NCBI GenBank assembly: GCA_046351595.1
Contig: JAXLYE010000002.1
Location: 1,560,022 to 1,624,021 of the forward strand
Reading direction: 5' to 3'
DNA: 64,000 nucleotides
Source of the DNA: Polyangia bacterium
GTDB lineage: Bacteria; Myxococcota_A; Polyangia; Palsa-1104; JAEUJZ01
The translations under genes and the position numbers were made by a program. Position 1 is the stretch's first letter; the number at the start of each line of letters is the position of its first letter. The notes beneath the pieces are model-generated. The model did not search any database. It had not been told where the DNA came from and saw only the letters and a list, made by a program, of their open reading frames with translations. Of the stretch, positions 2,224 to 53,233 are shown piece by piece.

Positions 2224-2341
2224 GCCTTGCGGCCTTGCGGTCCTGTGGCCTGTCGCCCTGCCGGCGCCCAGCCGCCGCGGCGCCCCCCGGCCTGAGCCCA
2301 AAGGATTGAGATCCACGAGCGTCGGCGATACTATCGCGATC

Positions 2342-2605
2342 ATGGCGCTGATCGACAAACCCGAGCGGGCCCGCCAGTTGGCCCGCGCAATCGCCTCCGA
2401 CCTCACCCTCTACCACGAGAAGGAGATCGTCGAGGGCATCGAGAACGACAACCTCTTCGACGTCATGCACGACCACATCGAGGAGGGGCGGACGCTGTTC
2501 AAGTCGCGCGTCGCGCCCGAGATCTTCGAGCTGGGCCTGTTCGATCGGGCCATCGTTGACGTGATGCTCAAGTCCAAGGGGCATGTAAAGTCCCGCATCT
2601 GGTGA
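2342..2605 (+). CDS. Small hypothetical protein
   Basis: Third codon positions are strongly GC-biased. The product reads MALIDKPERARQLARAIASDLTLYHEKEIVEG... Its stop codon overlaps the GTG start of the next gene (TGGTGA). Confidence 0.55.
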   Translation: MALIDKPERARQLARAIASDLTLYHEKEIVEGIENDNLFDVMHDHIEEGRTLFKSRVAPEIFELGLFDRAIVDVMLKSKGHVKSRIW

Positions 2606-3744
2606 CCCAAGAACCCCCCGTCCGCATCCACGAGTTCATCGTTCCCGAGTCGGCGGCCGGCCAGCGGCTGGACGTGTTCCTCGCGCAGCAGGGGCTGCCG
2701 TACTCGCGCTCGCAGCTCACCCGCCGCATCACCTGTGGCGAGGTGCGCGTCGACGGCTCCGCGACGGACCGTCCGGGCCTGCGCCTGCGCGCCGGCCAGC
2801 GCCTGCGCTTCACCCCGCCGCCGCCGCTGCCCGTCGAGGATCCGGCCGAGGACATCCCGCTCGACGTGCTGTTCGAGGACCGCCACCTCATCGTCGTGAA
2901 CAAGCCGGCGGGCCTGGTCGTGCACCCGGCGCCCGGTCACCTGCGCGGCACGCTGGTGAACGCGCTGCTGTTCCGCTGCGGGCCGCTGCCGGTGCCGCCG
3001 CCGTTTGTGCCCGGGGAGCGCGACTCGGACGAGGATCTAGACGACGAGAGCGACGACGCGGGAGAGGCAGCGGCGGAGGTCCCGGGCCTGGATCCCGGCC
3101 TGTCGATCGGCCTGTCCATTGGCGGCGAGCGCCGGCCGGGCATCGTGCACCGCCTGGACCAGGGCACCTCGGGCGTCATCGTCTGCGCCAAGGACGAGCC
3201 GACGCTGGTCGGGCTGCAGGCGCAGTTCGCGGTCCACTCGATCGCCCGCCGCTACGTCGCGCTCGTCGAGGGCGTGCTGCCCGAGCGCGGCACCTTCACG
3301 ACGCGCTACGGCCGCCACCCGCGTGACCGCAAGCGCTTCACCGCGCGATCGGGCAAAAAGCGCGCGGTCACCCACTACACCGTGCTCGAGCGGCTGGCCG
3401 GCGCGACGCTGGTCGAGGTGCAGCTGGAAACCGGGCGCACGCACCAGATCCGCGTCCACTTCAGCGAGGCCGGGCACCCCCTGCTCGGCGACCCCTTATA
3501 CGGCCGGCCGCCGCGCGCGCCCGAGGTGCGGCGGGTCGCGGCGGGCCTCAACAACCAGGCGCTGCACGCGCGGCTGCTCGGCTTCGTGCACCCGATGAGC
3601 GGCGAGCCGCTGACGTTCACCGCGCCGCCGCCGCCGGAGTTCCTGCAGGCGCTGTTGGCGCTGCGCCCGGCGCGGCCCGGGCTCGACGCGGCGACCGCGA
3701 GCGCGGGGTGCAGCGGCCGGCTGCCCTGGGAGATTCCGGCATGA
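2602..3744 (+). CDS. rluD: 23S rRNA pseudouridine synthase of the RluD/RluA family
   Basis: An S4-like N-terminus is followed by the catalytic HRLDQGTSGVIVCAKD motif and the C-terminal GRTHQIRVHF motif. The start is a GTG. Confidence 0.9.
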   Translation: MTQEPPVRIHEFIVPESAAGQRLDVFLAQQGLPYSRSQLTRRITCGEVRVDGSATDRPGLRLRAGQRLRFTPPPPLPVEDPAEDIPLDVLFEDRHLIVVNKPAGLVVHPAPGHLRGTLVNALLFRCGPLPVPPPFVPGERDSDEDLDDESDDAGEAAAEVPGLDPGLSIGLSIGGERRPGIVHRLDQGTSGVIVCAKDEPTLVGLQAQFAVHSIARRYVALVEGVLPERGTFTTRYGRHPRDRKRFTARSGKKRAVTHYTVLERLAGATLVEVQLETGRTHQIRVHFSEAGHPLLGDPLYGRPPRAPEVRRVAAGLNNQALHARLLGFVHPMSGEPLTFTAPPPPEFLQALLALRPARPGLDAATASAGCSGRLPWEIPA

Positions 3745-9849: not shown

Positions 9850-10136
9850 GGGCTTGCAATAGCACAGCTAAGCCCGCAAACGGGTCAAAAAAATTCCCCA
9901 TTTTCTTCGGCCGCATCGACGGCAACTAGTGCCGGGTCCGCCCCAAGCCGGGGGGCCGCGCGCGTCCAGCCTTGACCTTCGCGCCGCGGCTCACTACCTT
10001 CATCTCGACCCGGCTGCCTGAATCGCCTCGGTGAGGAGAGTTTTTTCCCTACAAGCATTGAACCCGGGATCTGCCGCTGGCCGTGGCGTGCACGCCCGCT
10101 CGTCGGGAAGCCCAATCCGGCTATTTGCAGAGCCCA

Positions 10137-10195
10137 CCTACTTCGGTAGGGGTTCAAACTTCCACACCACGACCGGGCGGGGGTCATTTTTTTTG
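10137..10195 (+). ncRNA. Candidate small RNA 3' end: a UUCG-tetraloop hairpin followed by a terminator-like hairpin and a run of eight T residues
   Basis: CCUACUUCGGUAGG is a 5-bp stem closing a UUCG loop. GACCGGGCGGGGGUC followed by UUUUUUUU lies at about 10171-10194. It sits in a 466-bp gap between divergent genes and is in the wrong orientation to terminate either flanking gene. Confidence 0.3.
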
Positions 10196-31909: not shown

Positions 31910-32323
31910 GCACACGGTCGGCGCCGCGCGGAGGGGCCAGCAGCCTGCCGAGATCCACCTACAGCGCACCCTCAGCGCAGCTGTAGTCCCGGCAGACGCC
32001 TGTTTCCACGGTCGCCGCACCTGCTTGGCCGCACGTGCCGAATACTCTTATAGTGAGTAACGTAGCCAGGCATTTCCTCGTCGCTGTTACGCTGTCTGTC
32101 CGGTAGCGGGAAGGCCGCGGGAGGGTTCTCTGGCTGCGCACGCGCGCGGGCGCGCGGCCGCTCCGGCTTGTGCCCCTGCGCGTACACACTCCTGCGCAGC
32201 GGTCGCCGCGCACAGCGCCAGGCCAGGCAGACACCCGAGGGCCGCGCCGACCCGGATTTAGGGCTTCCCCGATACCAAAAAGCCGAAGGAATCCGTCCCT
32301 CTGCGTCGTGAGATCCGGGCCTC

Positions 32324-32355
32324 CGGTTCCGGATTTTTTTTCTTGCGCCGGAACC
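32324..32355 (+). terminator. Hairpin plus a run of eight T residues (CCGGTTCCGG-ATTTTTTTT-CTTGCG-CCGGAACC) in a low-GC non-coding region
   Basis: It is intrinsic-terminator-like on the + strand, but sits 415 bp downstream of the nearest + gene. It may instead mark an sRNA 3' end or an AT-rich promoter element. Confidence 0.3.
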
Positions 32356-32397
32356 AGGAGGGGCGTGGCATCGTAGTTACTCGGGGGTTGTAGGTCT

Positions 32398-32411
32398 GTC
32401 CCAATTGGGAC
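32398..32411. promoter_or_regulatory. Perfect 14-bp palindrome GTCCCAATTGGGAC, a candidate operator
   Basis: It lies about 250 bp upstream of the DUF4331-like gene. Confidence 0.4.
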
Positions 32412-32440
32412 GGATGGACGGATGGAGCGCCGTGTCACCA

Positions 32441-32537
32441 GATCGCTCGCTGATCGGCTGGTTGATCTCCCGAGCAATCACTGATCTCCCATCTGATTTG
32501 GCACCTGATCTGGCACCCGATCTGGCACCGAAGGATC
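32441..32537. promoter_or_regulatory. Cluster of 7 GATC sites spanning three tandem copies of YGATCTGGCACC
   Basis: Counted directly in the sequence. Base composition predicts roughly 0.3 GATC sites in 97 bp. Confidence 0.5.
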
Positions 32538-32661
32538 GGGACCTGCGCTGCGCCGGCCAGACGGCCCGACGGAGCCGCTCCCGGCACAGCCGCTGACGCA
32601 AGGGCGTGATGTCAGCGGGTACGGACCGTAGAAGAAATCGCTTGTCAACTAGGAGTACTGC

Positions 32662-33387
32662 ATGAACTGGAAAAACGGGATCCTGGCACTCGGACTGGGC
32701 GCCGCTCTGCTGCCGGCACAGGCGGCGCTCGCCGCCGACCACCTCGACGGCGCGGCCGTGAAGACGGACGCCGCGACGGACATCAACGACGTGTACGCCT
32801 GGACGTCTTCGGACGGCTCGAAGGTGTACCTGGCGATGACCGTGTTCCCGGCGGCGACGACGACCGCCAAGTTCTCGAACGCGGCCTACTACGTGTTCCA
32901 CACGTCCAGCCGCGCGGACTTCCTGAACCAGACCATGGTTGCCAAGGACATCATCTGCAGCTTCGACGCCGCTCAGATGATCAGCTGCTGGGTCGGTGAC
33001 AACACCAACTTCGTGTACGGCAACGCCAACGTCACGACGGGCCTGACCGGCGCTGGCGGCAAGGTCAAGGTCTACGCCGGCCTGCGCAAGGACCACTTCT
33101 TCTTCAACCTGGACGGCTTCAACAACGCGCGCGCCACGATCAAGGCGCGCAACATGACCACGGCGATCACCATCGGCGCCAACGGCTGCCCGAGCAACAT
33201 CAACACGACCGAGACGGGGCTCATCGTGAACCAGCTCAAGACGAGCATGGCTACCGGTACGGGCACTCCGACCAACTTCTTCGCCAACCTCAACACCCTG
33301 GCGATCGTGCTCGAGGTCGACAAGACGCTGCTGAACGGCGGCGGACCGATCATGAGCGTCTGGGGCGCGACCGTGAAGAAGAACTAG
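32662..33387 (+). CDS. Secreted protein resembling the N-terminal half of a DUF4331-family protein
   Basis: The ribosome-binding site AGGAG precedes the ATG. The signal peptide ends ...AQAALA. The segments DAATDINDVYAW and NFFANLNTLAIVLEVDK resemble the DUF4331 N-terminal region as I recall it. Confidence 0.8.
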   Translation: MNWKNGILALGLGAALLPAQAALAADHLDGAAVKTDAATDINDVYAWTSSDGSKVYLAMTVFPAATTTAKFSNAAYYVFHTSSRADFLNQTMVAKDIICSFDAAQMISCWVGDNTNFVYGNANVTTGLTGAGGKVKVYAGLRKDHFFFNLDGFNNARATIKARNMTTAITIGANGCPSNINTTETGLIVNQLKTSMATGTGTPTNFFANLNTLAIVLEVDKTLLNGGGPIMSVWGATVKKN

Positions 33388-33405: not shown

Positions 33406-34167
33406 ATGAAGCGAATCATTCTCCCCTCCGTTGCGCTGCTCCTCGGCGTCCTCGCCGGCTGCGGTGACAACACGCCGACCAACACCAACAAGTGCGCCAA
33501 CGTCACGTGTACGGGCGGCCAGACCTGCGATGCCAACACCGGCATGTGCGTCGGCGGCACCGTCGACAAGTGCATGGGCGTGAGCTGCACCAACGGCCAG
33601 AGCTGCGACTCCGCGACCGGCATGTGCGCGAACCCGGCGATGCCGAGCCTCGCCGGCCTGACGCAGATCGACCGCATGGGCCGCCCCGCGGTCAACACCG
33701 CGCTCACCAACCCCTCCGACGTCTACAAGCCGGGCGGGCAGACCGAGACCTCGGACGTCACCAAGGACAAGTACAACGCCGACTCGACCGTCGCGAGCTG
33801 GCCGACGGCCTGGGGCCCGGCGATCAAGCTGCACCTGGGCGTGTACGACATCCTGGACAACACCTGCGGCAACCAGATCGCGTACGGCGCGCTGGCCATG
33901 CCCAACCACACGCTGCTCTCGGTGCTGCTGGCCGGCGACGCGCTGCAGGTCGACACCAGCCAGACGACCTGCTCGGCGTACCTGGCGGCGGAGCGCAAGG
34001 CGCTCGGCGCGACGATCAACGACTGCGGCGGGCGCAAGCTCGACTACGACGTCGTCGACGTGACCTACTCGGCCCTGGCGACCGGCATGGTCACCGGCGT
34101 CACCGACGGCATCGCCCAGGGCACGGCGCCGGACACCACCTTCCCGTTCTTCAAGCCGCCGGTCTAG
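33406..34167 (+). CDS. Lipoprotein with two Cys-rich 'myxo' repeats and a domain resembling the C-terminal half of DUF4331
   Basis: The lipobox is LAGCG. The repeats are CANVTCTGGQTCDANTGMC and CMGVSCTNGQSCDSATGMC. The MGRPAVNTAL...KDKYNAD segment resembles the second half of DUF4331. Confidence 0.8.
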   Translation: MKRIILPSVALLLGVLAGCGDNTPTNTNKCANVTCTGGQTCDANTGMCVGGTVDKCMGVSCTNGQSCDSATGMCANPAMPSLAGLTQIDRMGRPAVNTALTNPSDVYKPGGQTETSDVTKDKYNADSTVASWPTAWGPAIKLHLGVYDILDNTCGNQIAYGALAMPNHTLLSVLLAGDALQVDTSQTTCSAYLAAERKALGATINDCGGRKLDYDVVDVTYSALATGMVTGVTDGIAQGTAPDTTFPFFKPPV

Positions 34168-34485
34168 CGCCAGTCCGGTCTCCCTCCTGAGCTACACCTG
34201 ATCTGTCCGTGAGCTGCGCCCGATCTGCTGATCATCAGCCGATCGGGCGGCCGGCTCTCCCTCCCGGGCTGCGCGCGGGCGCGGGAGCGGTGTGCGTGCT
34301 CGCCGCAGCGGCCTGGTCGCGCTGGGTCGATGACGTCCGTGGCCGCGCGACCGAGGCCGTCACCGACCGCGCGCCGCCGTTCCCGCCCGCGAGCGCGCGA
34401 CGAGCGCGAGGCGGCGTCGGAACGGCTGCGCGCGCTCGGCCTCGGCGCGGACCTCTTAGTGAGAGAGGGTTCGCAGGGGGCCCAG

Positions 34486-35238
34486 GTGTCGTCCACGCTC
34501 TCGTCCGCGACGGTCTCGGTGACGCGCGTCTGCTCGGTCTGCAAGGCCGGCTACGTGCAAAGCCAGGGCCATGCCTGCCCGCTGGGCGAGTCCGTGCCGG
34601 CCACCAACGACACGCAGCTCGAGGGCGCGGTCCTCGGTGAGCGCTATCGCATCGCGCGCGCCATCTCCAAGGGCGGCATGGGCGTGGTGTTCAAGGCGCA
34701 CCACACGGTGCTCGACAAGCCGCTGGCGGTGAAGGTCATGCTGCAGCCGCAGGACGAGGCCGCGCGCCGCCGCTTCCTGCAGGAGGCGAAGCTGGCCTCG
34801 CAGGTCGCGCACCCCAACATCATCGACATCGTCGACTTCGGGGTGCTGACCACGGATCAGCCGTTCCTGGTCATGGAGTGGCTGTCCGGTCAGACGCTGG
34901 CCGACCTCATCGCCGAGGGCCCGCTGCCCTTCGCCCGCGCCTGCACCATCGCCGCCCAGATCGCCCGCGGCCTGCACGCGGTGCACCAGCGCGGCATCAT
35001 CCACCGCGACCTGAAGCCCGCCAACATCTTCGTCCTGCCGCAGGACGGCGGGTTCGATCTGGTCAAGATCGTCGACTTCGGCATCGCCACCCAGGTCGCG
35101 GACGGCGACGGGTCGCGGCCGGCGCCGGCGCGCCTGACCTCGCCGGGCATGGTGCTGGGCACGGCCGAGTACATGTCCCCCGAGCAGGCCCAGGGCATGC
35201 GCACCGACCACCGCGTCGATCAGTACGCGCTCTGCTGA
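34486..35238 (+). pseudogene. Ser/Thr protein kinase, N-terminal fragment (subdomains I-IX), truncated by the insertion at 35233
   Basis: The kinase motifs are GKGGMGVVFKA, HRDLKPANIF, DFGIA and GTAEYMSPEQ. The product ends ...VDQYALC*, and the expected continuation GCILFEMLTG... is found in frame at 40714. Confidence 0.75.
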
Positions 35239-37612: not shown

Positions 37613-39976
37613 ATGCTGCTTGATCCACACCAGCCCGCAGCCGGCTCGGACGCTCTCCTGTTCAAGCGACTGTTCGACCACAGCCTCGACGCGATGGTGG
37701 TTGCCGACGACGAGGGCCGCTATCTGGAGGTCAACGACGCCGCGTGCGTGCTGCTCGGCCACTCGCGCGATCAGCTCCTGCGCATGCGCGTCACAGACCT
37801 GCAGAGTCACGACGGACCCGACACGGCAGAGCGCTACAAGACCTACCTCCGCCGCGGCCGCGAGATCGGTGAGTTTCCCTTTTTGCGCGGCGGTTCCGAG
37901 CCGTGCATCGCGGAGTACTACGCCATCCGCCTGGGTCCCAACCAGAACTTCAGCGTGCTGCGCGATCTGACTGCGCGCAAGCGTACGGAGGCGCAGCTCC
38001 GGGAGAGCGAGGCGCGGTTCCGTCAGCTGGCGACCAGCCTGTACCGCGTCTTCTGGCTCGTCAGCGCCGACTACAGCGAGACTCTGTACGTAAATTCCCA
38101 GTACGAAACGGTATTCGGGCAGCCGCTGCGTACGGTGTACGCAGACTTCCGCGCCTGGCTGGCGCTGGTGCACCCCGACGATCGGCCGCAGGTCGCCGCG
38201 GTGATCGAGCAGTACCGCACGCAGCCCCACCCCGGCAGCCGCGAGCTGGAGTACCGGATCGTACACGCGGACGGCAGCGAGCGCTGGCTGCTGACGTCGC
38301 TGTTCCCGGTGCGCAGTGACGAGGGAGAGGTGTACCGACACGGCGGGCTGACGCGTGACGTGACGCACGAGAAGACGATGGCCGCGGCGCTGGTCGCCGC
38401 CGAGCAGAACTTCCGCGCGCTGGTCGAGAGCTCGCTCGATGGCATCGCGGTCCTTACGGGCGCGCGCATCGTATTCGCCAACCGCAAGATGCTCGATCTC
38501 TTGGGCGCCGCTTCGCTCGACGCGGTGCTCGGCGGGTCGCTGTCGGGGCAGATCCACCCGGGCGATCAGCAGACCTACGCCGAGGTGCTGGCCGAGCTCG
38601 CGCAGGGGGCGGAGCGCACCTCGCCGCGGCGGCTGCGATTCGTCGTGAAGACGGGCCGCACGATCGAGGTCGAGCTGACGCTGGTGCGGGTGCAGTTCAG
38701 CGGCCGTGCGGCGATCATGGCGGTGCTGCATGACCTGAGCGATCGCACGCGGGTGCGCCTGCTCAGCGAGGCCGTGGAGCTCGAGCGGGCGACCCGGCTG
38801 CAGGCCGATGCCGCCCTGCTGCGGGCGCGCGCGCTGCAGGCCATCACGGACGCTGCGCTGGCCTCTGGCGACGAGACCTTGCTGTTGTCCGAGCTGGCCG
38901 AGCGGGTGCGCGGGCTGCTCGGCGCCCGCTGCGTCAGCGTCTACCGCGTCGATGAAGAGGCCAAGGCGCTGCGCGCGGTCGCGATCACACCGGCCGCGCT
39001 CGGCGCCTGCGGGCAGGCGCTGGTGCCGCTGGGGACGTGGGTGTGGCAGGGCCCAGGGGGCCGCCCGACGATGCCCTCGCCCGACGCGGTGGCGCTGCTG
39101 CCGCCCGGGTTCCTGCCGACCGCGCTCATCCGGCTGACGCCGCCGGGGGGCAGCGCGCTCGGCCTGTTCGTGGTCAGCATGGCGCCCGACACCGGCCTCT
39201 CTGAAGACGATCTGCAGGTGCTGACGCCGATCGGCGAGCGGGTGGGCTCCGCTATCGAGCGCAGCCGCCTGTATCACCAGCTGCGGCAGGAGGAGGCGCG
39301 CCTGCGTGCGCTGTCGCGGCAGGTCGTAGAGGCGCAGGAGCGTGAGCGGCGCCACATCGCGCGCGAGCTGCACGACGATCTCGGGCAGCTGCTCACCGCG
39401 CTGTCGCTGCGGCTGCACCACTGCGCGCAGCAGGCGCCCGAGGCGCTGGGTCCCTCGATCGCCGAGGTGCAGGGGCTGAACCTCGAGCTTCTGGGCCGCG
39501 TGCGCCAGATGTCGCGGGCGCTGCGCCCGCCCATGCTCGACGATCTCGGCCTCTTGCCGGCGCTGACCTGGCACCTGGAGCGGGTGCGCAAGCTGATGCA
39601 GATCCACGTCCAGCTCGCGCACAGCGGCATCGATCGCCGCTTCTCACCCGAGCTCGAGATCACCGCCTACCGCGTCGTGCAGGAGGCCGTCACCAACATC
39701 GTCCGCCACGCCGGCGTGCGCGAGGCGGTCGTGCGCCTGTGGGCCAACTCGACCACGCTCGCGGTCCAGATCGTGGATCGGGGTGTCGGCTTTGATCCTC
39801 AGGCGATTCCGGAGTCCTCGGCCGGCCTGCTCGGGATGCAGGAGCGGGTGGTGCTGCTGGGGGGACACTTCACGGTGGAGTCCGCGCCCGGTCAGGGCAC
39901 TTCGATCACCGCCGAGTTCTCACTGAACATGAGCAAAGAGGGGGAGCGCCGCACCGCATGCCTATTACCCTCCTGA
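37613..39976 (+). CDS. Sensor histidine kinase with multiple PAS domains, a GAF-like region, a HisKA_3 domain and a HATPase_c domain (NarL-partner type)
   Basis: PAS-like segments include LLFKRLFDHSLDAMVV... The H-box reads RHIARELHDDLGQLLTAL, and the C-terminal ATPase motif is DRGVGFD. Confidence 0.9.
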   Translation: MLLDPHQPAAGSDALLFKRLFDHSLDAMVVADDEGRYLEVNDAACVLLGHSRDQLLRMRVTDLQSHDGPDTAERYKTYLRRGREIGEFPFLRGGSEPCIAEYYAIRLGPNQNFSVLRDLTARKRTEAQLRESEARFRQLATSLYRVFWLVSADYSETLYVNSQYETVFGQPLRTVYADFRAWLALVHPDDRPQVAAVIEQYRTQPHPGSRELEYRIVHADGSERWLLTSLFPVRSDEGEVYRHGGLTRDVTHEKTMAAALVAAEQNFRALVESSLDGIAVLTGARIVFANRKMLDLLGAASLDAVLGGSLSGQIHPGDQQTYAEVLAELAQGAERTSPRRLRFVVKTGRTIEVELTLVRVQFSGRAAIMAVLHDLSDRTRVRLLSEAVELERATRLQADAALLRARALQAITDAALASGDETLLLSELAERVRGLLGARCVSVYRVDEEAKALRAVAITPAALGACGQALVPLGTWVWQGPGGRPTMPSPDAVALLPPGFLPTALIRLTPPGGSALGLFVVSMAPDTGLSEDDLQVLTPIGERVGSAIERSRLYHQLRQEEARLRALSRQVVEAQERERRHIARELHDDLGQLLTALSLRLHHCAQQAPEALGPSIAEVQGLNLELLGRVRQMSRALRPPMLDDLGLLPALTWHLERVRKLMQIHVQLAHSGIDRRFSPELEITAYRVVQEAVTNIVRHAGVREAVVRLWANSTTLAVQIVDRGVGFDPQAIPESSAGLLGMQERVVLLGGHFTVESAPGQGTSITAEFSLNMSKEGERRTACLLPS

Positions 39977-40611
39977 TCGCCGACGATCACTTCCTGGTGC
40001 GCCAGGGCCTGAAGGCGCTGCTCTCGGCCTCCGGGGATCTGCAGATCCTGGGAGAAGCCGACCGCGGGGAGCTCGCGGTGCAGATGGCGCAGACGCTGCA
40101 GCCGGATGTCCTGATCCTGGATCTCGCAATGCCCGGCCCGAGCGGCCTGGATGTCGCGCAGACCCTGACAGAGCGCGGCGCGCGCTGCCGCATCCTGATG
40201 CTGTCGATGCACGACGACGAGTCGCACGTGCTGGCGGCGCTGCAGGCCGGAGCCCTGGGCTACATCCTCAAGTCCTCGGACGCGGCGGAGCTCCTGCAGG
40301 CGATCCGTGTGGTGGCCAGCGGTCAGCGCTACCTGGGGCAGCCGCTCAACGATCGCGTGATCGCCGCCTATGCCAAGCAGGCGCGCGGCCCGGCGCTGGA
40401 TCCGTATGAGACGCTGTCCCAGCGCGAGCGCGAGATCCTCAAGCTCGTTGCGGAAGGGAACAGCAACATGGAGATCGCCGCGCGCCTGGCCCTGAGCCCG
40501 CGCACCGTCGAGAACCACCGCGCCAGCGTGATGCGCAAGCTCGATCTGGCTTCGCCGACGGCGCTCATCCGCTACGCCATCCGCACCGGCCTCATCCCGC
40601 TGAGCGAGTGA
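39958..40611 (+). CDS. NarL/FixJ-family response regulator with a receiver domain and a LuxR-type HTH
   Basis: The receiver region reads LLIADDHFLVRQGL...VLILDLAMPG. The C-terminal HTH reads LSQREREILKLVAEGNSNMEIAARLALSPRTVENHR. The gene overlaps the kinase by 19 bp. Confidence 0.9.
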   Translation: MPITLLIADDHFLVRQGLKALLSASGDLQILGEADRGELAVQMAQTLQPDVLILDLAMPGPSGLDVAQTLTERGARCRILMLSMHDDESHVLAALQAGALGYILKSSDAAELLQAIRVVASGQRYLGQPLNDRVIAAYAKQARGPALDPYETLSQREREILKLVAEGNSNMEIAARLALSPRTVENHRASVMRKLDLASPTALIRYAIRTGLIPLSE

Positions 40612-41550: not shown

Positions 41551-42179
41551 GGCAGCGCGCCATGAACACACGCTCACTCAAAGGACCGCGGCGGCTCCCG
41601 GTCGCGCTGCTGGCGCTGCTGGCGCTCCTCTTTACGGCGCTGCCGCAGCTCGCGCACGCCGACAACTTCGAGAAGCTGTTCCGCCAGGGCCTGACCCTGT
41701 ACGAGCGCAAGGAGTACGAGCCCGCGATCGAGGCGTTCCTGCAGGCCTATGAGGTGCGGCAGCTGCCGCGCGTGCTGCTCAACATCGCGCAGGTGTACCG
41801 CAAGATCGGGCGCGGCAACGACGCGCTCCTTTACTACGAGCGCTACCTCAAGGCCGAGCCGAACCCGCCGCCCAAGATCCGCGCCGACGTCGAGGCGTAC
41901 GTCCAGCAGGTGCGCGCGCTGGTCAATACGCCCGAGGTCAAGGAAGACCTCTTGCGCCGCCAGGAGCCCGCGCCCACCGGCTGGGACCCGGACACCGGCC
42001 AGATGCTGGCCTGGTACAAGAAGCAGTACGAGGCGAGCCGCAAGCTGTACAAGAAGCCGTGGTTCTGGGCGGTGATCGGCGGCGCGGTCGCGGCCTCGGT
42101 GGCCATCGGCGTCGGTGTCGGCGTCGGCGTCACCCAGAGGAACAAGATCCCCGAGGGGATCACCATCTTGAACTTTTAG
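41547..42179 (+). CDS. TPR-repeat protein with a signal peptide and a C-terminal transmembrane helix
   Basis: The signal peptide reads LPVALLALLALLFTALPQLAHA. The TPR-like core reads YEPAIEAFLQAYEV...ALLYYERYLKAEP. The C-terminal transmembrane segment reads WFWAVIGGAVAASVAIGVGVGVGV. Confidence 0.65.
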   Translation: MRQRAMNTRSLKGPRRLPVALLALLALLFTALPQLAHADNFEKLFRQGLTLYERKEYEPAIEAFLQAYEVRQLPRVLLNIAQVYRKIGRGNDALLYYERYLKAEPNPPPKIRADVEAYVQQVRALVNTPEVKEDLLRRQEPAPTGWDPDTGQMLAWYKKQYEASRKLYKKPWFWAVIGGAVAASVAIGVGVGVGVTQRNKIPEGITILNF

Positions 42180-42244
42180 CGAACCGCCGCGCGCGCCGAT
42201 TCCTAGTCCGCTCGACCTGGGCGCGCGCTCCCGAGGAGGCCCCC

Positions 42245-43309
42245 ATGTCAGCGACGCCCGCAATGTCACCGACGTCCGCGCTGTCTGCGCCGTCCGCGCT
42301 GTCACCGACGTCGGCGATGTCGGCAGTGCCTGCGGCGTCCGCCGCTCCCGCGATGCGCGTACGCTCTGCGGCGCCGCGCCCGTCGGTCGGTCGCGCGCGG
42401 CGGCGGTCGCCGTCCGGCTGGAGGCGCGCCGCGTTTGGCGCCCTCGGCATCCTCTGCGGCGGCGGCTCGCTGCTGTCGGCGGCGGGCTGCGGCGATCGCC
42501 AGGTGGTGGTCGTCAGCGTCACCGGCCGGCCGGATCCGGTCTCGGGCCTGGGCGTCTACTACCGCGTCGATCCGGACGGCGGGCCGCTGCGCTTCGGCGG
42601 GCTGAAGCCGGCCAACGGCATCGTGCCAAACTACGACCTGTTCGGGATCTCGCTCGATCGCGGCGTCAGCGGCACGCTGAGCATCGATGTCTACGCGCAC
42701 CAGGACGGATCCCCCTGCATCCGCAGCCGCGGCCACGCCGACGTCGCGCTGAGCGGCGATCCCAAGCAGCAGGCCGAGGTCGTCATGGCCCCGGTGCAGG
42801 CCGCCTGCGACACCAGCTTCCCGGGCGGCGTATTCCCCAAGAACGCCAAGATCTGGGGCAGCGCCATCGACGACCTGTGGATCGTCGGGGACGGCGGCGC
42901 GATCGTGCGCTGGAACGGCGTGTACCTCGAAACCGTGCCGCTGCCCGAGCCGCTCAAGATGGCGCGGCCGCAGCTGCCCAACTTCCGCGCCGTCTCCGGC
43001 TCCGGCGCGCGCAACGTCTGGATCGTCGGCGATCAGGGCACGGTGCTGCGCTGGAAGGTTGCCGGCGCCCGCCCTCCTGTGCGCTGCGCCACCCTGCGGC
43101 GCCGGGGGAGCCCGGGGGAACGTGCTACGATCTCGGCGTGTCCTCAGGCAAGCAGAGGTCGGGCGGCGACCTCGGGCTCCGCGTCGAAGAGGACCTCCTC
43201 TTCGTCACCCCCACCGGTGACATGCCGCCCGAGCAGGCGCAGCGCGTGGTGCAGCTTTCCGCGGAGGTCTTCGCGCGGCACGGGCACCTGTTCCTGCTCG
43301 CCGACATGA
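42245..43309 (+). CDS. Lipoprotein with propeller-like W-x-V-G-D-x-G-x-x-x-R-W repeats; the C-terminal 80 aa look like out-of-frame sequence, so a frameshift or pseudogene is possible
   Basis: The ribosome-binding site GAGGAGG precedes the ATG. The lipobox is LLSAAGCGD. After about 43080 the frame becomes Arg/Ser/Pro-rich with no stop until 43309. It overlaps the next gene by 170 bp in another frame. Confidence 0.5.
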   Translation: MSATPAMSPTSALSAPSALSPTSAMSAVPAASAAPAMRVRSAAPRPSVGRARRRSPSGWRRAAFGALGILCGGGSLLSAAGCGDRQVVVVSVTGRPDPVSGLGVYYRVDPDGGPLRFGGLKPANGIVPNYDLFGISLDRGVSGTLSIDVYAHQDGSPCIRSRGHADVALSGDPKQQAEVVMAPVQAACDTSFPGGVFPKNAKIWGSAIDDLWIVGDGGAIVRWNGVYLETVPLPEPLKMARPQLPNFRAVSGSGARNVWIVGDQGTVLRWKVAGARPPVRCATLRRRGSPGERATISACPQASRGRAATSGSASKRTSSSSPPPVTCRPSRRSAWCSFPRRSSRGTGTCSCSPT

Positions 43310-43560
43310 AGCGCGCCGGCCTCGTGCCCGCGGAGTCGCGGCGCATCCTGGCCCGCTTCGCGGCCGAGAACCCACCGCTGGCGCTGGCCATGTACAACGT
43401 CGGTCCGCTGGTCCGCGGCGTGAACGCGCTGTTGTTCGGGGCCATCGGCCTGCTCGGCAAGCGGCGCCTGAACGTGATGCTGTTCGCGACGGAAGATGCG
43501 GCCAGGGCGTGGCTCCTGGCCGAGCGCCGGCGGCTGCTGCCCGAGCGCGGGAAGGGGTGA
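43138..43560 (+). CDS. Hypothetical protein
   Basis: The product reads ...DLLFVTPTGDMPPEQAQRVVQLSAEVFARHGHLFLLADMKRAGLVPAESRRIL... with good codon bias. A GTG start at 43138 or an ATG near 43222 are both possible. Confidence 0.5.
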   Translation: MSSGKQRSGGDLGLRVEEDLLFVTPTGDMPPEQAQRVVQLSAEVFARHGHLFLLADMKRAGLVPAESRRILARFAAENPPLALAMYNVGPLVRGVNALLFGAIGLLGKRRLNVMLFATEDAARAWLLAERRRLLPERGKG

Positions 43561-43831
43561 GGCGACGGGGCCGCGCGCCCGCACCGGGCGATGAGCTTCG
43601 GCGCGAGCCGACCTGACCCCACCGACGGGTCGGACCCGTTCCGGCGCCGGGTCGGGCGCTGCGCCGGCTCTGGGCGCTGTCGGGACGGCGTGCAGACCTC
43701 GGCGAGATCAAAGTGATTACCACTGGAACGCGAAGGCTGCTCCGTACTCCGGACTCCCTTGCTCATTCCTTCCGACACTCCGGAAGCGGCCCGGGGCTCC
43801 CGGCTGGTCGGGAACCGGAACGAGCCTCGTC

Positions 43832-52016: not shown

Positions 52017-52342
52017 AAAAAAACGGCAAAAAATTTGCTCGCTTGATCGACCGACCCCAGCATGGGCGCGTGTCTGTGGGCACCGATCTAAATAGCCACA
52101 TAACGCCGTCGCGACAGCGCCATAAGCGCGGCGAAGTGCTGGCTATGATTGAAACGTTTCAAGAGGTTTCACAGGCGCAGGACCTCGGTCACGGGCTCCA
52201 CCACGGCCGACCGGCTGCCGAGCGGGCCGCGCCCCATGCCGGCCCCGCTGCAGACCCCGATGCCGGCCCCGGCACCAAGCGGCCGAGGCGTGCGCGCGGC
52301 GCTTCCGCTGCGGCCGCCTACCGTGCGAACATCTCTGCCGAG

Positions 52343-53233
52343 ATGATCTCGCCAGCCAGGGGGGCCGGGGTCGGGGGCGCGAAGGTGAACCCGGTGGGGC
52401 CGCGGCCGTTCCTCAAGTGGGCCGGCGGCAAGCGCCAGCTGTTGCCCGAGCTTCTGGCCCGGCTGCCGGCCTCGTTCCGTCGCTACCACGAGCCGTTCCT
52501 GGGCGGCGGCGCGCTGTTCTTCGCGCTCGCCGAGCGCGGCCACGAGGGCGCCCGCGGCGCCGTCCTGTCCGACGTCAACCCCGAGCTCGTCAACGCCTAT
52601 AAGGTCGTGCGCGATCGCGTCGAGACGCTCATCACGCTGCTCGGCGCATTCCGCAATGAAGAAGAGTTTTATTACCAGGTTCGTGAGCAGGACCCGAGCC
52701 AGCTCGATCCCGTGCAGCGGGCGGCGCGCCTCATCTACTTGAATAAGACCTGCTTCAACGGCTTGTTTCGCGAAAACCGGAACGGGCGATTCAACGTTCC
52801 GTTTGGCCGATACCGCCAGCCGCTGATCTGCGCACCGAACGAGCTGCGTGCCGCCAGCAAGGCGCTGCGCGGCGCCTCGATCGAGCGCCGCCCGTTCGAG
52901 GCCGCCCTGGATCTGGCCGGCCCCGGCGACTTCGTCTACTGCGACCCGCCCTACGCGCCGATCAGCCGCACCGCCTCGTTCACCGGCTACACCGGCGGCG
53001 GCTTCGACGAGGCGGCGCAGCGGCGCCTGGCCGAGCGCGTGCGCAGCCTCGGCGCCGCCGGCGTGCACGTGCTGGTCTCGAACTCGTGGGTGCCGCTGAC
53101 GCAGTCGCTGTACGACGGGCTGCGCATCGAGAAGGTGCTCGCCAGCCGGGCCATCAACAGCCGCGGCGACCGGCGCGGCAAGGTGCCCGAGCTGCTGGCC
53201 GCCGCCGGCCCCGCGGGCTCGACGGGCTGCTAA
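52343..53233 (+). CDS. Dam-family (alpha-class, D12) DNA N6-adenine methyltransferase, an orphan with no adjacent restriction gene
   Basis: The motifs are FLKWAGGKRQLLPEL, NKTCFNGLFRENRNGRFNVPFG and YCDPPY. An in-frame extension back to the ATG at 52145 is possible but begins with poor codons. Confidence 0.85.
   Translation: MISPARGAGVGGAKVNPVGPRPFLKWAGGKRQLLPELLARLPASFRRYHEPFLGGGALFFALAERGHEGARGAVLSDVNPELVNAYKVVRDRVETLITLLGAFRNEEEFYYQVREQDPSQLDPVQRAARLIYLNKTCFNGLFRENRNGRFNVPFGRYRQPLICAPNELRAASKALRGASIERRPFEAALDLAGPGDFVYCDPPYAPISRTASFTGYTGGGFDEAAQRRLAERVRSLGAAGVHVLVSNSWVPLTQSLYDGLRIEKVLASRAINSRGDRRGKVPELLAAAGPAGSTGC

Follow-up and report, generated by a model that had tools for sequence, protein, structure and literature searches.

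Is a dense run of GATC sites in front of a bacterial operon the mark of an epigenetic switch, or can a tandem repeat simply come to resemble one? This is the question raised by the 752-base-pair (bp) spacer at 31910-32661 of a 64,000-nucleotide (nt) stretch of a Polyangia bacterium genome (the whole stretch is 'the window' in what follows; its guanine-plus-cytosine content, or GC, is 71.9%), which lies upstream of two genes that each encode half of a DUF4331 protein. The original prediction, made from the letters alone, saw in the clustered GATC sites, the repeats overlapping them and a Dam-like gene some way off the architecture of a phase-variable switch that depends on Dam, of the kind established for pap and agn43. 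We have compared the locus with eight close and about 20 distant relatives, gathered by protein searches, and the short answer is that the GATC observation is real but less exceptional than first stated, and that the switch reading, although its premises hold, is not favoured by the comparison. The reading to which we incline, with a confidence that is only a little better than even, is that the spacer is a composite control region of a two-gene operon in which the GATC repeat is largely neutral or modulatory.

The evidence that carries this answer comes from the closest relatives, which are best introduced by the identity of their proteins to that of the window: L036, an independent assembly, at 100%; L037, a member of the window protein's 90% protein cluster, with coding DNA 97.5% identical; L025 and L026, both at 97%; L012, at 95%; L027, at 88%; L029, also at 88% and with a different upstream type; and L028, at 86%. 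The distant orthologues (L001-L024 except L012) stand at 39-61%. At four-fold degenerate sites the window differs by 8-10% from L012 or L025 and by 26% from L027. Against this background of close relationship, four strains with 96.5-97.5% coding DNA identity carry four different arrays, of 7, 8, 5 and 4 GATC. In the window the seven sites are spaced by 11, 12, 19, 24, 12 and 15 nt, with decayed AATC and GATT units falling in phase; the eight of L012 are spaced by 11, 12, 12, 12, 8, 4 and 11, the five of L025 by about 11, and the four of L037 by 11, 11 and 26. L028 has three GATC inside a 26-bp tandem repeat. L027 has none at all, the array stretch being missing, and yet both promoters and most of the leader are kept.

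Looked at site by site, the arrays are no more stable. The GATC sites at 32441 and 32452 keep their position in L012, L025 and L037, and the site at 32534 is kept in L012 and L037 and lost in L025; L027 has kept not one of the array sites, and the inner ones are different from strain to strain. Decayed units (GATT, AATC, GATG, GAAC) occur in every strain's array, whereas the triple 12-mer, like a 22-nt insertion, is specific to the window strain. At three repeat positions the window has TGGC where L012 has GATC, an exchange that points to concerted change among units, while L025, L037 and L028 carry other units again. Since GATCGATC is common to L025 and L012, the derived form is the window's TGATCTGGCACC unit, which was amplified afterwards. 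An assembly artefact can be set aside, because the array in the independent assembly L036 is identical; that assembly, the sole second one of the strain, accordingly gives no repeat-length difference within the strain. In its level of substitution (71-84% in aligned columns) the array resembles the unconstrained body of the upstream P1 transcript, to which we return below, and what it has in excess is indels. On the reading that we prefer, a GATC-containing unit, in a part of the leader that is under little constraint, would have been duplicated, deleted and converted time and again to give the GATC cluster, the triple 12-mer would be the most recent amplification, confined to the window strain, and any effect of the array would be at most modulatory, exerted through leader length or structure, through Dam or through a binding protein.

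How unusual, then, is the cluster itself? Seven GATC in 97 bp had been reported and seven are there (32441, 32452, 32464, 32483, 32507, 32519 and 32534, or 125-221 nt upstream of the ATG), forming the densest cluster in the window. The accompanying figure of about 20-fold over expectation is right if base composition is the yardstick (22-28-fold, with 0.25-0.31 expected), but it shrinks to about 9-fold over the window's own density of 7.6 per kilobase (kb), and to about 12-fold over the non-coding GATC density of 5.85 per kb. Indeed, GATC is over-represented throughout the window, with 489 observed against 269 expected from dinucleotide shuffles (1.8-fold). When 489 sites are placed uniformly at random, a cluster of at least 7 in 97 bp turns up in 3.75% of simulations, and dinucleotide shuffles of the 320 bp upstream reach seven GATC with P=0.007; the array sites are in any case not independent, because several stem from one tandem repeat. 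The three tandem 12-mers are likewise present (TGATTTGGCACC at 32494-32505, TGATCTGGCACC at 32506-32517 and CGATCTGGCACC at 32518-32529), but only two of the three hold a GATC, there being none in TGATTTGGCACC; a fourth, more diverged repeat unit occupies 32482-32493. The array lies about 60-155 nt downstream of the inferred start of the promoter P2, and therefore in the transcribed leader, between two leader blocks that are conserved at 95-96% in the L012 comparison. We also considered whether the repeats might hold a sigma-54 promoter, since they contain TGGCAC, and rejected it: the -12 GC is missing at the right spacing (TGGCAC-N5-CTGG), and L012 has GATC where the window has TGGC.

Upstream GATC enrichment is a lineage-specific matter, being found in the window group, in the L005 group and in L018, and not in L027, L001, L002, L004, L008, L015, L016, the L003 group or L031. 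The L005-type loci are of some interest in their own right. In L005, L006, L011, L020 and L029 a TGATC -35 element, flanked by CAGATCG and often by GATCGATC, stands at about -175 to -240 from the ATG, and loci of this type have 2-4 GATC over the -35 region, with upstream GATC enriched (P = 0.000-0.043). L029 (1-264) is a mosaic, in which the N-terminal half of DUF4331 is 88% identical to that of the window and the 5' end and upstream region are L005-type, with TGATC-N17-CGTA and GATCGATC; this suggests recombination between the two locus types. The last array unit of the window, GGATCGGGAC, has a match in L029, where GATCGGGAC stands in the -35/spacer region of the TGATC-type promoter; this hints that the array may descend from the GATC-rich promoter region of the other locus type.

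If the array is not what controls the operon, what might be? Our leading candidate is P2, a promoter of the extracytoplasmic function (ECF) sigma type, the hallmark of which is AAC at -35 and CGT at -10 (PMC8103513). Both strands of the 64 kb together contain two matches to the P2 pattern, where 0.51 are expected; the other GGAAC-N15-18-CGTA match (41715-41739, minus strand, 16-nt spacer) is antisense inside a TPR-protein gene and probably due to chance. GGAAC-N17-CGTA, with the same spacing, is found upstream of the orthologue in L012, L025, L027, L001, L002, L004, L008 and L015, at 137-157 nt from the ATG in the last five of these and at -227 to -312 in the window group. It is thus kept with identical spacing in four independent orthologue lineages, and two more have variants of the -35, CGAAC in L016 and TGATC in L005, L006, L011, L020 and L029; in the L031/L032 lineage a TATAAT-type promoter takes the place of the ECF type. 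P2 sits in a block that is 96% identical to L012 and, because it is conserved upstream of orthologous gene pairs, it is probably the operon's main, signal-dependent promoter. It is placed directly behind a run of T. Most of the orthologues tabulated have an A5-A6 or T tract immediately before the -35, and in the window the T8 would be both a terminator tail and an UP-like A/T tract for P2.

That terminator belongs to a second unit, which begins at P1. This sigma-70-like promoter is the only promoter-like match in 3.1 kb (0.2 expected), and its motif, unique in the window, is present in L012, L025 and L027. The block around it (32010-32072) is 97% identical in L012 and 92% in L027, after which identity drops to 73-80% over the next 240 nt; the body of the P1 transcript is thus poorly conserved and broken by large indels, with its 5' and 3' ends conserved. 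P1 and a terminator about 280 nt downstream make a candidate non-coding transcription unit. The hairpin followed by eight T residues had been pointed out from the start, and it has counterparts: in the window, L012 and L025 a run of T8-T10 directly follows a hairpin of -11.5 to -12.3 kcal/mol, and the hairpin sequences are 62-67% identical, so that to judge by these alignments the terminator hairpin is maintained by differing sequences, i.e. by compensatory change. In L027 the hairpin is weak and a T5 run is kept. P1 would most likely drive a non-coding RNA of about 280 nt, ended by the hairpin and the T8, and we see its transcript as a candidate small non-coding RNA or, alternatively, as an attenuated upstream leader; the tandem position of the unit before an ECF promoter could mean either an insulating terminator or an attenuated long leader. 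Pairing of the P1 RNA with the P2 leader was tried as an idea and rejected, duplex energies being no better than those of shuffles in four of four strains.

Downstream of P2 we infer a 5' leader about 285 nt long, in which stem-loops are conserved and the ribosome-binding region hardly varies. The perfect 14-bp palindrome GTCCCAATTGGGAC singled out earlier does exist, but its occurrence is at chance frequency (the window has 14 perfect 14-mers, and shuffles average 13.0), and we have rejected it as a significant feature. Its counterparts in relatives, GTCCCAATCGGGGC in L037 and CTCCCGCTCGGGGT in L027, keep a TCCC/GGGR core with a U-A to U-G change and leave the central 4 nt free, and L031/L032 have GTCCCTAAGGGGGG just after their TATAAT-type promoter. 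The evidence is thin, but the pattern would seem to fit a 5' stem-loop better than a symmetric operator. The second motif that had been listed, GGACGGATGGACGGATGGA, is present at 32408-32426. Further down, the stem of a leader hairpin (32590-32618) is kept by double changes at three pairs (CG to UA, UA to CG and AU to GC). All five strains compared, those at 86-88% protein identity among them, agree in every one of the 39 nt that precede the ATG (32623-32661), and the whole proximal-leader alignment of these five has one substitution or 1-nt gap, at about 32621-32622.

The spacer had been called non-coding, and rightly so: as far as about 32580 the codon phases differ in GC by no more than 0.23, whereas in the flanking genes the difference is 0.33 or more (third-position GC), its small open reading frames (ORFs) lack a Pfam match, and no Rfam family is found in it at gathering thresholds, with just one chance microRNA match up to E 10. 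A hidden small gene was rejected on the same grounds, third-position GC not being of the coding type and four spacer ORFs having no Pfam match. The description 'low-GC' holds in direction (65.3% against 71.9% for the window), but the difference is modest. Set against L012, the spacer is a mosaic of conserved and diverged segments (Table 1). The shared block begins ...GAGATCCACCTACAG in the window, L012 and L027, though the upstream gene of L027 differs. At this left edge L027 has a perfect hairpin of its own, CCTACAGAG/CTCTGTAGG, where L012 is deleted. Between its different upstream gene and the conserved module, at about 330-400, L027 also has two copies of an AT-containing palindrome, ATACATAGGGCCCTATGTAT and TATAGGACCCTATGT.

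The premise concerning the methyltransferase has stood up well. The gene said to encode a Dam-like enzyme some 20 kb away ends at 53233, and its product is of the Dam family, with FLKWAGGK and DPPY motifs and matches to PF02086 (2.6e-58) and TIGR00571 'dam' (269.8 bits, the cutoff being 114.85). Among solved structures its nearest relatives are two GATC enzymes, DpnM (1.8e-60) and E. coli Dam (1e-45), and the alignment keeps the equivalents of Dam K9, N120, L122, R124, N126, P134, R137 and Y138, which we take to be the GATC contacts in the Dam-DNA structure; specificity for GATC is thus a reasonable expectation. Homologues form a graded series of 96, 86, 83 and about 72% identity. The neighbours are a divergent AAA_16/TPR gene and a DUF7790 protein, with the aspartyl-tRNA synthetase AspRS in conserved gene order, and both L033 and L034 preserve this order, as does L035 in part (67% identity; AAA_16/TPR neighbour kept), all from Polyangia or Myxococcota metagenome-assembled genomes (MAGs). 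No restriction-enzyme gene lies beside the methyltransferase in the window, L033, L034 or L035, and GATC in the window is, as we have seen, over-represented rather than avoided. As far as gene neighbourhoods allow one to judge, this is a conserved orphan Dam. One MAG, GCA_025057315.1, has both the Dam of L035 and the DUF4331 pair of L032, and the 320 bp upstream of that pair contain 0 GATC.

Would such an enzyme turn the array into a switch? As envisaged, the orphan Dam would methylate the phased GATC sites, a methylation-sensitive protein sitting on the unmethylated array just downstream of P2 would block transcription, and through competition between the two expression would become heritably ON or OFF, as with OxyR at agn43. 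The ingredients are certainly attractive, since there is an orphan, clade-conserved enzyme of the Dam family with its GATC-contact residues conserved, the array is the window's densest GATC cluster and recurs in the closest relatives, GATC is the sole element common to the differing units of the window, L012, L025, L037 and L028, the 11-12 bp phasing would place the sites on one face of the helix, the products of the operon are predicted to be exported, and GATC overlaps the -35 in the TGATC-type orthologue promoters. It is the comparison among strains that tells against it. GATC sites overlapping regulator-binding repeats, the heart of the original prediction, find no support there: around the GATCs there is no conserved sequence that a regulator might use as its site, every strain has units of its own, the triple 12-mer is peculiar to one strain, and only the first two sites are positionally kept in all three of the closest strains (the last in two of the three). 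Units that have decayed are tolerated, L027 and most orthologue lineages have no array, and the Dam-carrying MAG just mentioned does without GATC upstream of its DUF4331 pair. No OxyR/LysR or Lrp/AsnC gene was found among the window ORFs scanned, nor any OxyR/LysR or Lrp gene beside the orthologues, though such a regulator may be encoded elsewhere, and the literature searched holds no report of Dam regulation in myxobacteria. Finally, known switches have 2-4 fixed GATC sites within a defined Lrp or OxyR binding site, and agn43 has three in its cis-regulatory sequence (PMC13076061, PMC4872104), not 4-8 variable ones. We consider a Dam-dependent switch unlikely, and to the fuller proposition, that selection keeps the array GATC-rich and that with the orphan Dam it gives the leader of an ECF-controlled operon an ON/OFF switch dependent on methylation and/or the repeat, we would give a slim chance.

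Two further explanations leave methylation aside. The array might be a repeat contingency locus, in which frequent slippage and recombination among the 11-12-bp units alter the length and structure of the leader, and hence read-through, mRNA stability or translation. Four arrays among strains at least 96.5% identical in coding DNA, the deletion in L027 and the 95-96% identity of the flanks are just what such a locus might look like, as are the strain-specific 22-nt insertion and triple 12-mer. The P1 body diverges by 20-27% too, however, so the array may be simply unconstrained and not selected to vary; moreover, the sole independent assembly of the strain is identical, and units as long as 11-12 bp, present in 3-4 copies, are much less prone to slippage than the repeats of 1-7 bp in known contingency loci. 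This explanation is quite improbable in our eyes. Alternatively, the YGATC units might be bound by a DNA-binding regulator that oligomerises or, as GAUC, by an RNA-binding protein, and control would then be exerted after ECF-dependent initiation. Here one can point to a core that is phased and reiterated, to an array held between conserved leader blocks and to the CAGATCG...GATC that is also found next to the promoter in L005-type loci, but 4-5 nt make too small a core to be recognised specifically, the strains differ in copy number and in spacing (11, 12, 14, 19, 24 and 26 nt), L027 can do without the array, no protein presents itself as a candidate, and no consistent RNA structure emerges, L012 having an inverted repeat where the window has direct repeats. 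We rate such a binding array as very unlikely.

The composite control region that we prefer has difficulties of its own, and the following observations should be counted against it. Four arrays, each rearranged in its own way, have all stayed rich in GATC, and GATC is also found at the -35 of the TGATC-type promoters; neutral repeat turnover alone is not an obvious cause of this, and selection for GATC could be at work. The 11-12 bp spacing, close to one helical turn, is what one would expect of a protein binding to one face. The P1 RNA has no unusual fold stability (z = -0.48), and covariation in it is weak (RNAalifold term -1.62, from four sequences only). The P1 and P2 starts, placed near 32061 and 32382, and the termination between them, near 32341, are predictions. 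No ECF-type sigma gene was found among the window ORFs scanned, where the only match to Sigma70_r4_2 is a marginal one (26.1 bits) in a GerE-type response regulator at 39796-40608, and none lies beside the orthologues in L030-L032. ECF target promoters, it should be said, need not adjoin their sigma gene.

Table 1. Features of the spacer and its surroundings in window coordinates, with identity to L012 for the segments aligned
Feature	Coordinates	Strand	Identity to L012	Remarks
Inverted repeat CTACAGCGC...GCGCAGCTGTAG	31959..31986	+		Near left edge of segment shared with relatives
P1 block	32010-32072		97%	
Predicted promoter P1	32025..32054	+		Sigma-70-like TTGGCC, 18-nt spacer, TATAGT; inside conserved block 32010-32072
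Inferred P1 transcript, ~280 nt	32061..32341	+		Between P1 and terminator
P1 body	32073-32309		73%	
Hairpin	32310-32333		67%	
Predicted intrinsic terminator	32310..32341	+		Hairpin 32310-32333, then T8 32334-32341; from terminator scan
T-run, P2, 5' leader	32334-32455		96%	
Predicted promoter P2	32350..32375	+		ECF-sigma type: GGAAC (-35), 17 nt, CGTA (-10)
Palindrome GTCCCAATTGGGAC	32398..32411	+		~23 nt after P2 -10
Tandem duplication GGACGGAT	32408..32426	+		GGA-rich; conserved in L012, L025, L037; one unit fewer in L027
GATC-phased tandem-repeat array	32441..32537	+		7 GATC plus decayed AATC (32476) and GATT (32495); includes 12-bp repeats 32482-32529
GATC array segment	32456-32533		50%, gaps counted	
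Proximal leader	32534-32661		95%	
Leader hairpin CCGCUGACG...UGUCAGCGG	32590..32618	+		RNAalifold, five strains
Near-invariant proximal leader	32621..32661	+		Ribosome-binding site AGGAG (32651-32655)
Coding sequence	32662-33387		97%	
Gene 1, N-terminal half of DUF4331	32662..33387	+		Predicted Sec signal peptide (…AQAALA|ADH); Pfam PF14224 profile 127-234; third-position GC 0.94
Gene 2, C-terminal half of DUF4331	33406..34167	+		Predicted lipoprotein (lipobox LAGC); two Cys-rich repeats; Pfam PF14224 profile 250-421
Hairpin after operon, CGCCCGATCTGCTGAT/ATCAGCCGATCGGGCG	34217..34249	+		Inverted repeat, 16-nt arms, 94% complementary
Orphan Dam-family DNA adenine methyltransferase	52136..53233	+		Start inferred from 365-amino-acid homologue

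What the operon encodes is itself something of a puzzle. The protein of gene 1 (32662-33384) is identical to NCBI MFO0575041.1, a DUF4331 family protein from a Polyangia bacterium MAG, and the split of DUF4331 into two adjacent genes is seen in the window and in those related loci whose downstream gene was examined. That the downstream genes would encode surface or secreted proteins agrees with the Sec signal and the lipobox predicted for them. The Cys-rich repeats of gene 2 are encoded by a 63-nt direct repeat (33488-33550 and 33566-33628). An AlphaFold2 model of the DUF4331 N-terminal half (predicted local distance difference test score 84.5) has no Foldseek match in the PDB, the best E being 0.26, and no paper mentioning DUF4331 was found in the literature searched. 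Four more GATC sites had been noted behind the operon, and they are where they should be (34200, 34222, 34230 and 34241); three of the four make up the two arms and the centre of the hairpin at 34217-34249, GATC appearing in both arms because it is self-complementary. This hairpin is probably the operon's terminator. L012 keeps its outer stem, CGCC(T)GATC/GATC(G)GGCG, and differs in the interior. A repeated element flanking the operon (32467-32554 against 34184-34250) was considered and discarded, as the alignment score is 27 and unrelated parts of the window reach 28-31.

The wider surroundings fit a myxobacterium, with Ser/Thr kinases, DUF4388, PAS histidine kinases, 6S RNA, Ffh and AspRS. 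The 6S RNA gene is at 10012-10189 on the plus strand (Rfam RF00013, 56.3 bits where the gathering score is 46.4, matched along the whole model). Just behind the operon a Ser/Thr kinase ORF (34330-35238, plus strand) stops after Pkinase position 183 of 263, immediately before a convergent DUF4388 gene, and may be a truncated kinase or a pseudokinase; L012 has an ORF of similar length at 2325-3299 (324 amino acids, against 302 in the window). Elsewhere, 42180-43831 forms 1.65 kb without any ORF of coding-type third-position GC in a window that is otherwise gene-dense.

Why should any of this matter? If the ordinary reading is right, the gain is one for annotation: an uncharacterised, widely distributed and exported split DUF4331 pair acquires a conserved ECF-type promoter and a structured leader, attention is drawn to a candidate small RNA and to an orphan Dam conserved in Polyangia, and the locus serves as an example of a tandem repeat that can be mistaken for a cluster of methylation sites. 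Should the array after all prove functional, phase variation of the Dam type or the repeat type would be extended to social soil bacteria, where population heterogeneity matters and where mechanisms of this sort are not known, and a true switch would be the first epigenetic phase variation described in Myxococcota, one with a many-site, rapidly remodelled array in place of 2-4 fixed sites. It is fortunate that nature has provided leader variants with 8, 7, 5, 4 and 0 GATC on otherwise near-identical backgrounds, which makes the locus directly testable.

It remains to set the spacer beside the systems that it most resembles. With the Dam-controlled loci of Enterobacteria (agn43, gtr, opvAB and pap) it shares a solitary enzyme of the Dam family, clustered GATC in the control region of genes for exported or surface proteins and a spacing of roughly one helical turn, but it differs from them in having 4-8 sites that vary in number, spacing and flanks between near-identical strains, in showing no regulator motif, in lacking the array in a close relative and in its host, a myxobacterium. 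The present array lies just downstream of a promoter, and so does the agn43 cluster, a placement that for agn43 the two papers cited above for the known switches do not themselves confirm. The clusters bound by SeqA at E. coli oriC and the dnaA promoter are comparable in having many GATC within less than 100 bp at about helical-turn spacing, yet our array is in an operon leader and not at a replication origin, and SeqA is a gammaproteobacterial protein. Contingency loci built on simple sequence repeats or variable-number tandem repeats likewise have a tandem repeat in a control region, with copy number and arrangement differing among very close strains; here, in contrast, the unit is long (11-12 bp), the copy number is low and the variation seen is between strains. 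Small RNA genes with an intrinsic terminator offer a conserved sigma-70-like promoter, some 280 nt ending on a GC-rich hairpin and U-run, and no ORF, all as in the P1 unit, which differs from them in belonging to no Rfam family, in its lack of significant fold stability or covariation and in a body that is poorly conserved and full of large indels. Compared with ECF (group IV) promoters, P2 departs in that no adjacent sigma/anti-sigma pair was found and some orthologues have TGATC or CGAAC at -35, but its GGAAC/17 nt/CGTA fits AAC/CGT, its position before the orthologous operon is conserved, and its target encodes envelope or exported proteins. Taken as a whole, the spacer adds a new case to kinds of element already known, namely promoters of the ECF type, structured leaders, tandem repeats and, as a candidate, small RNAs.

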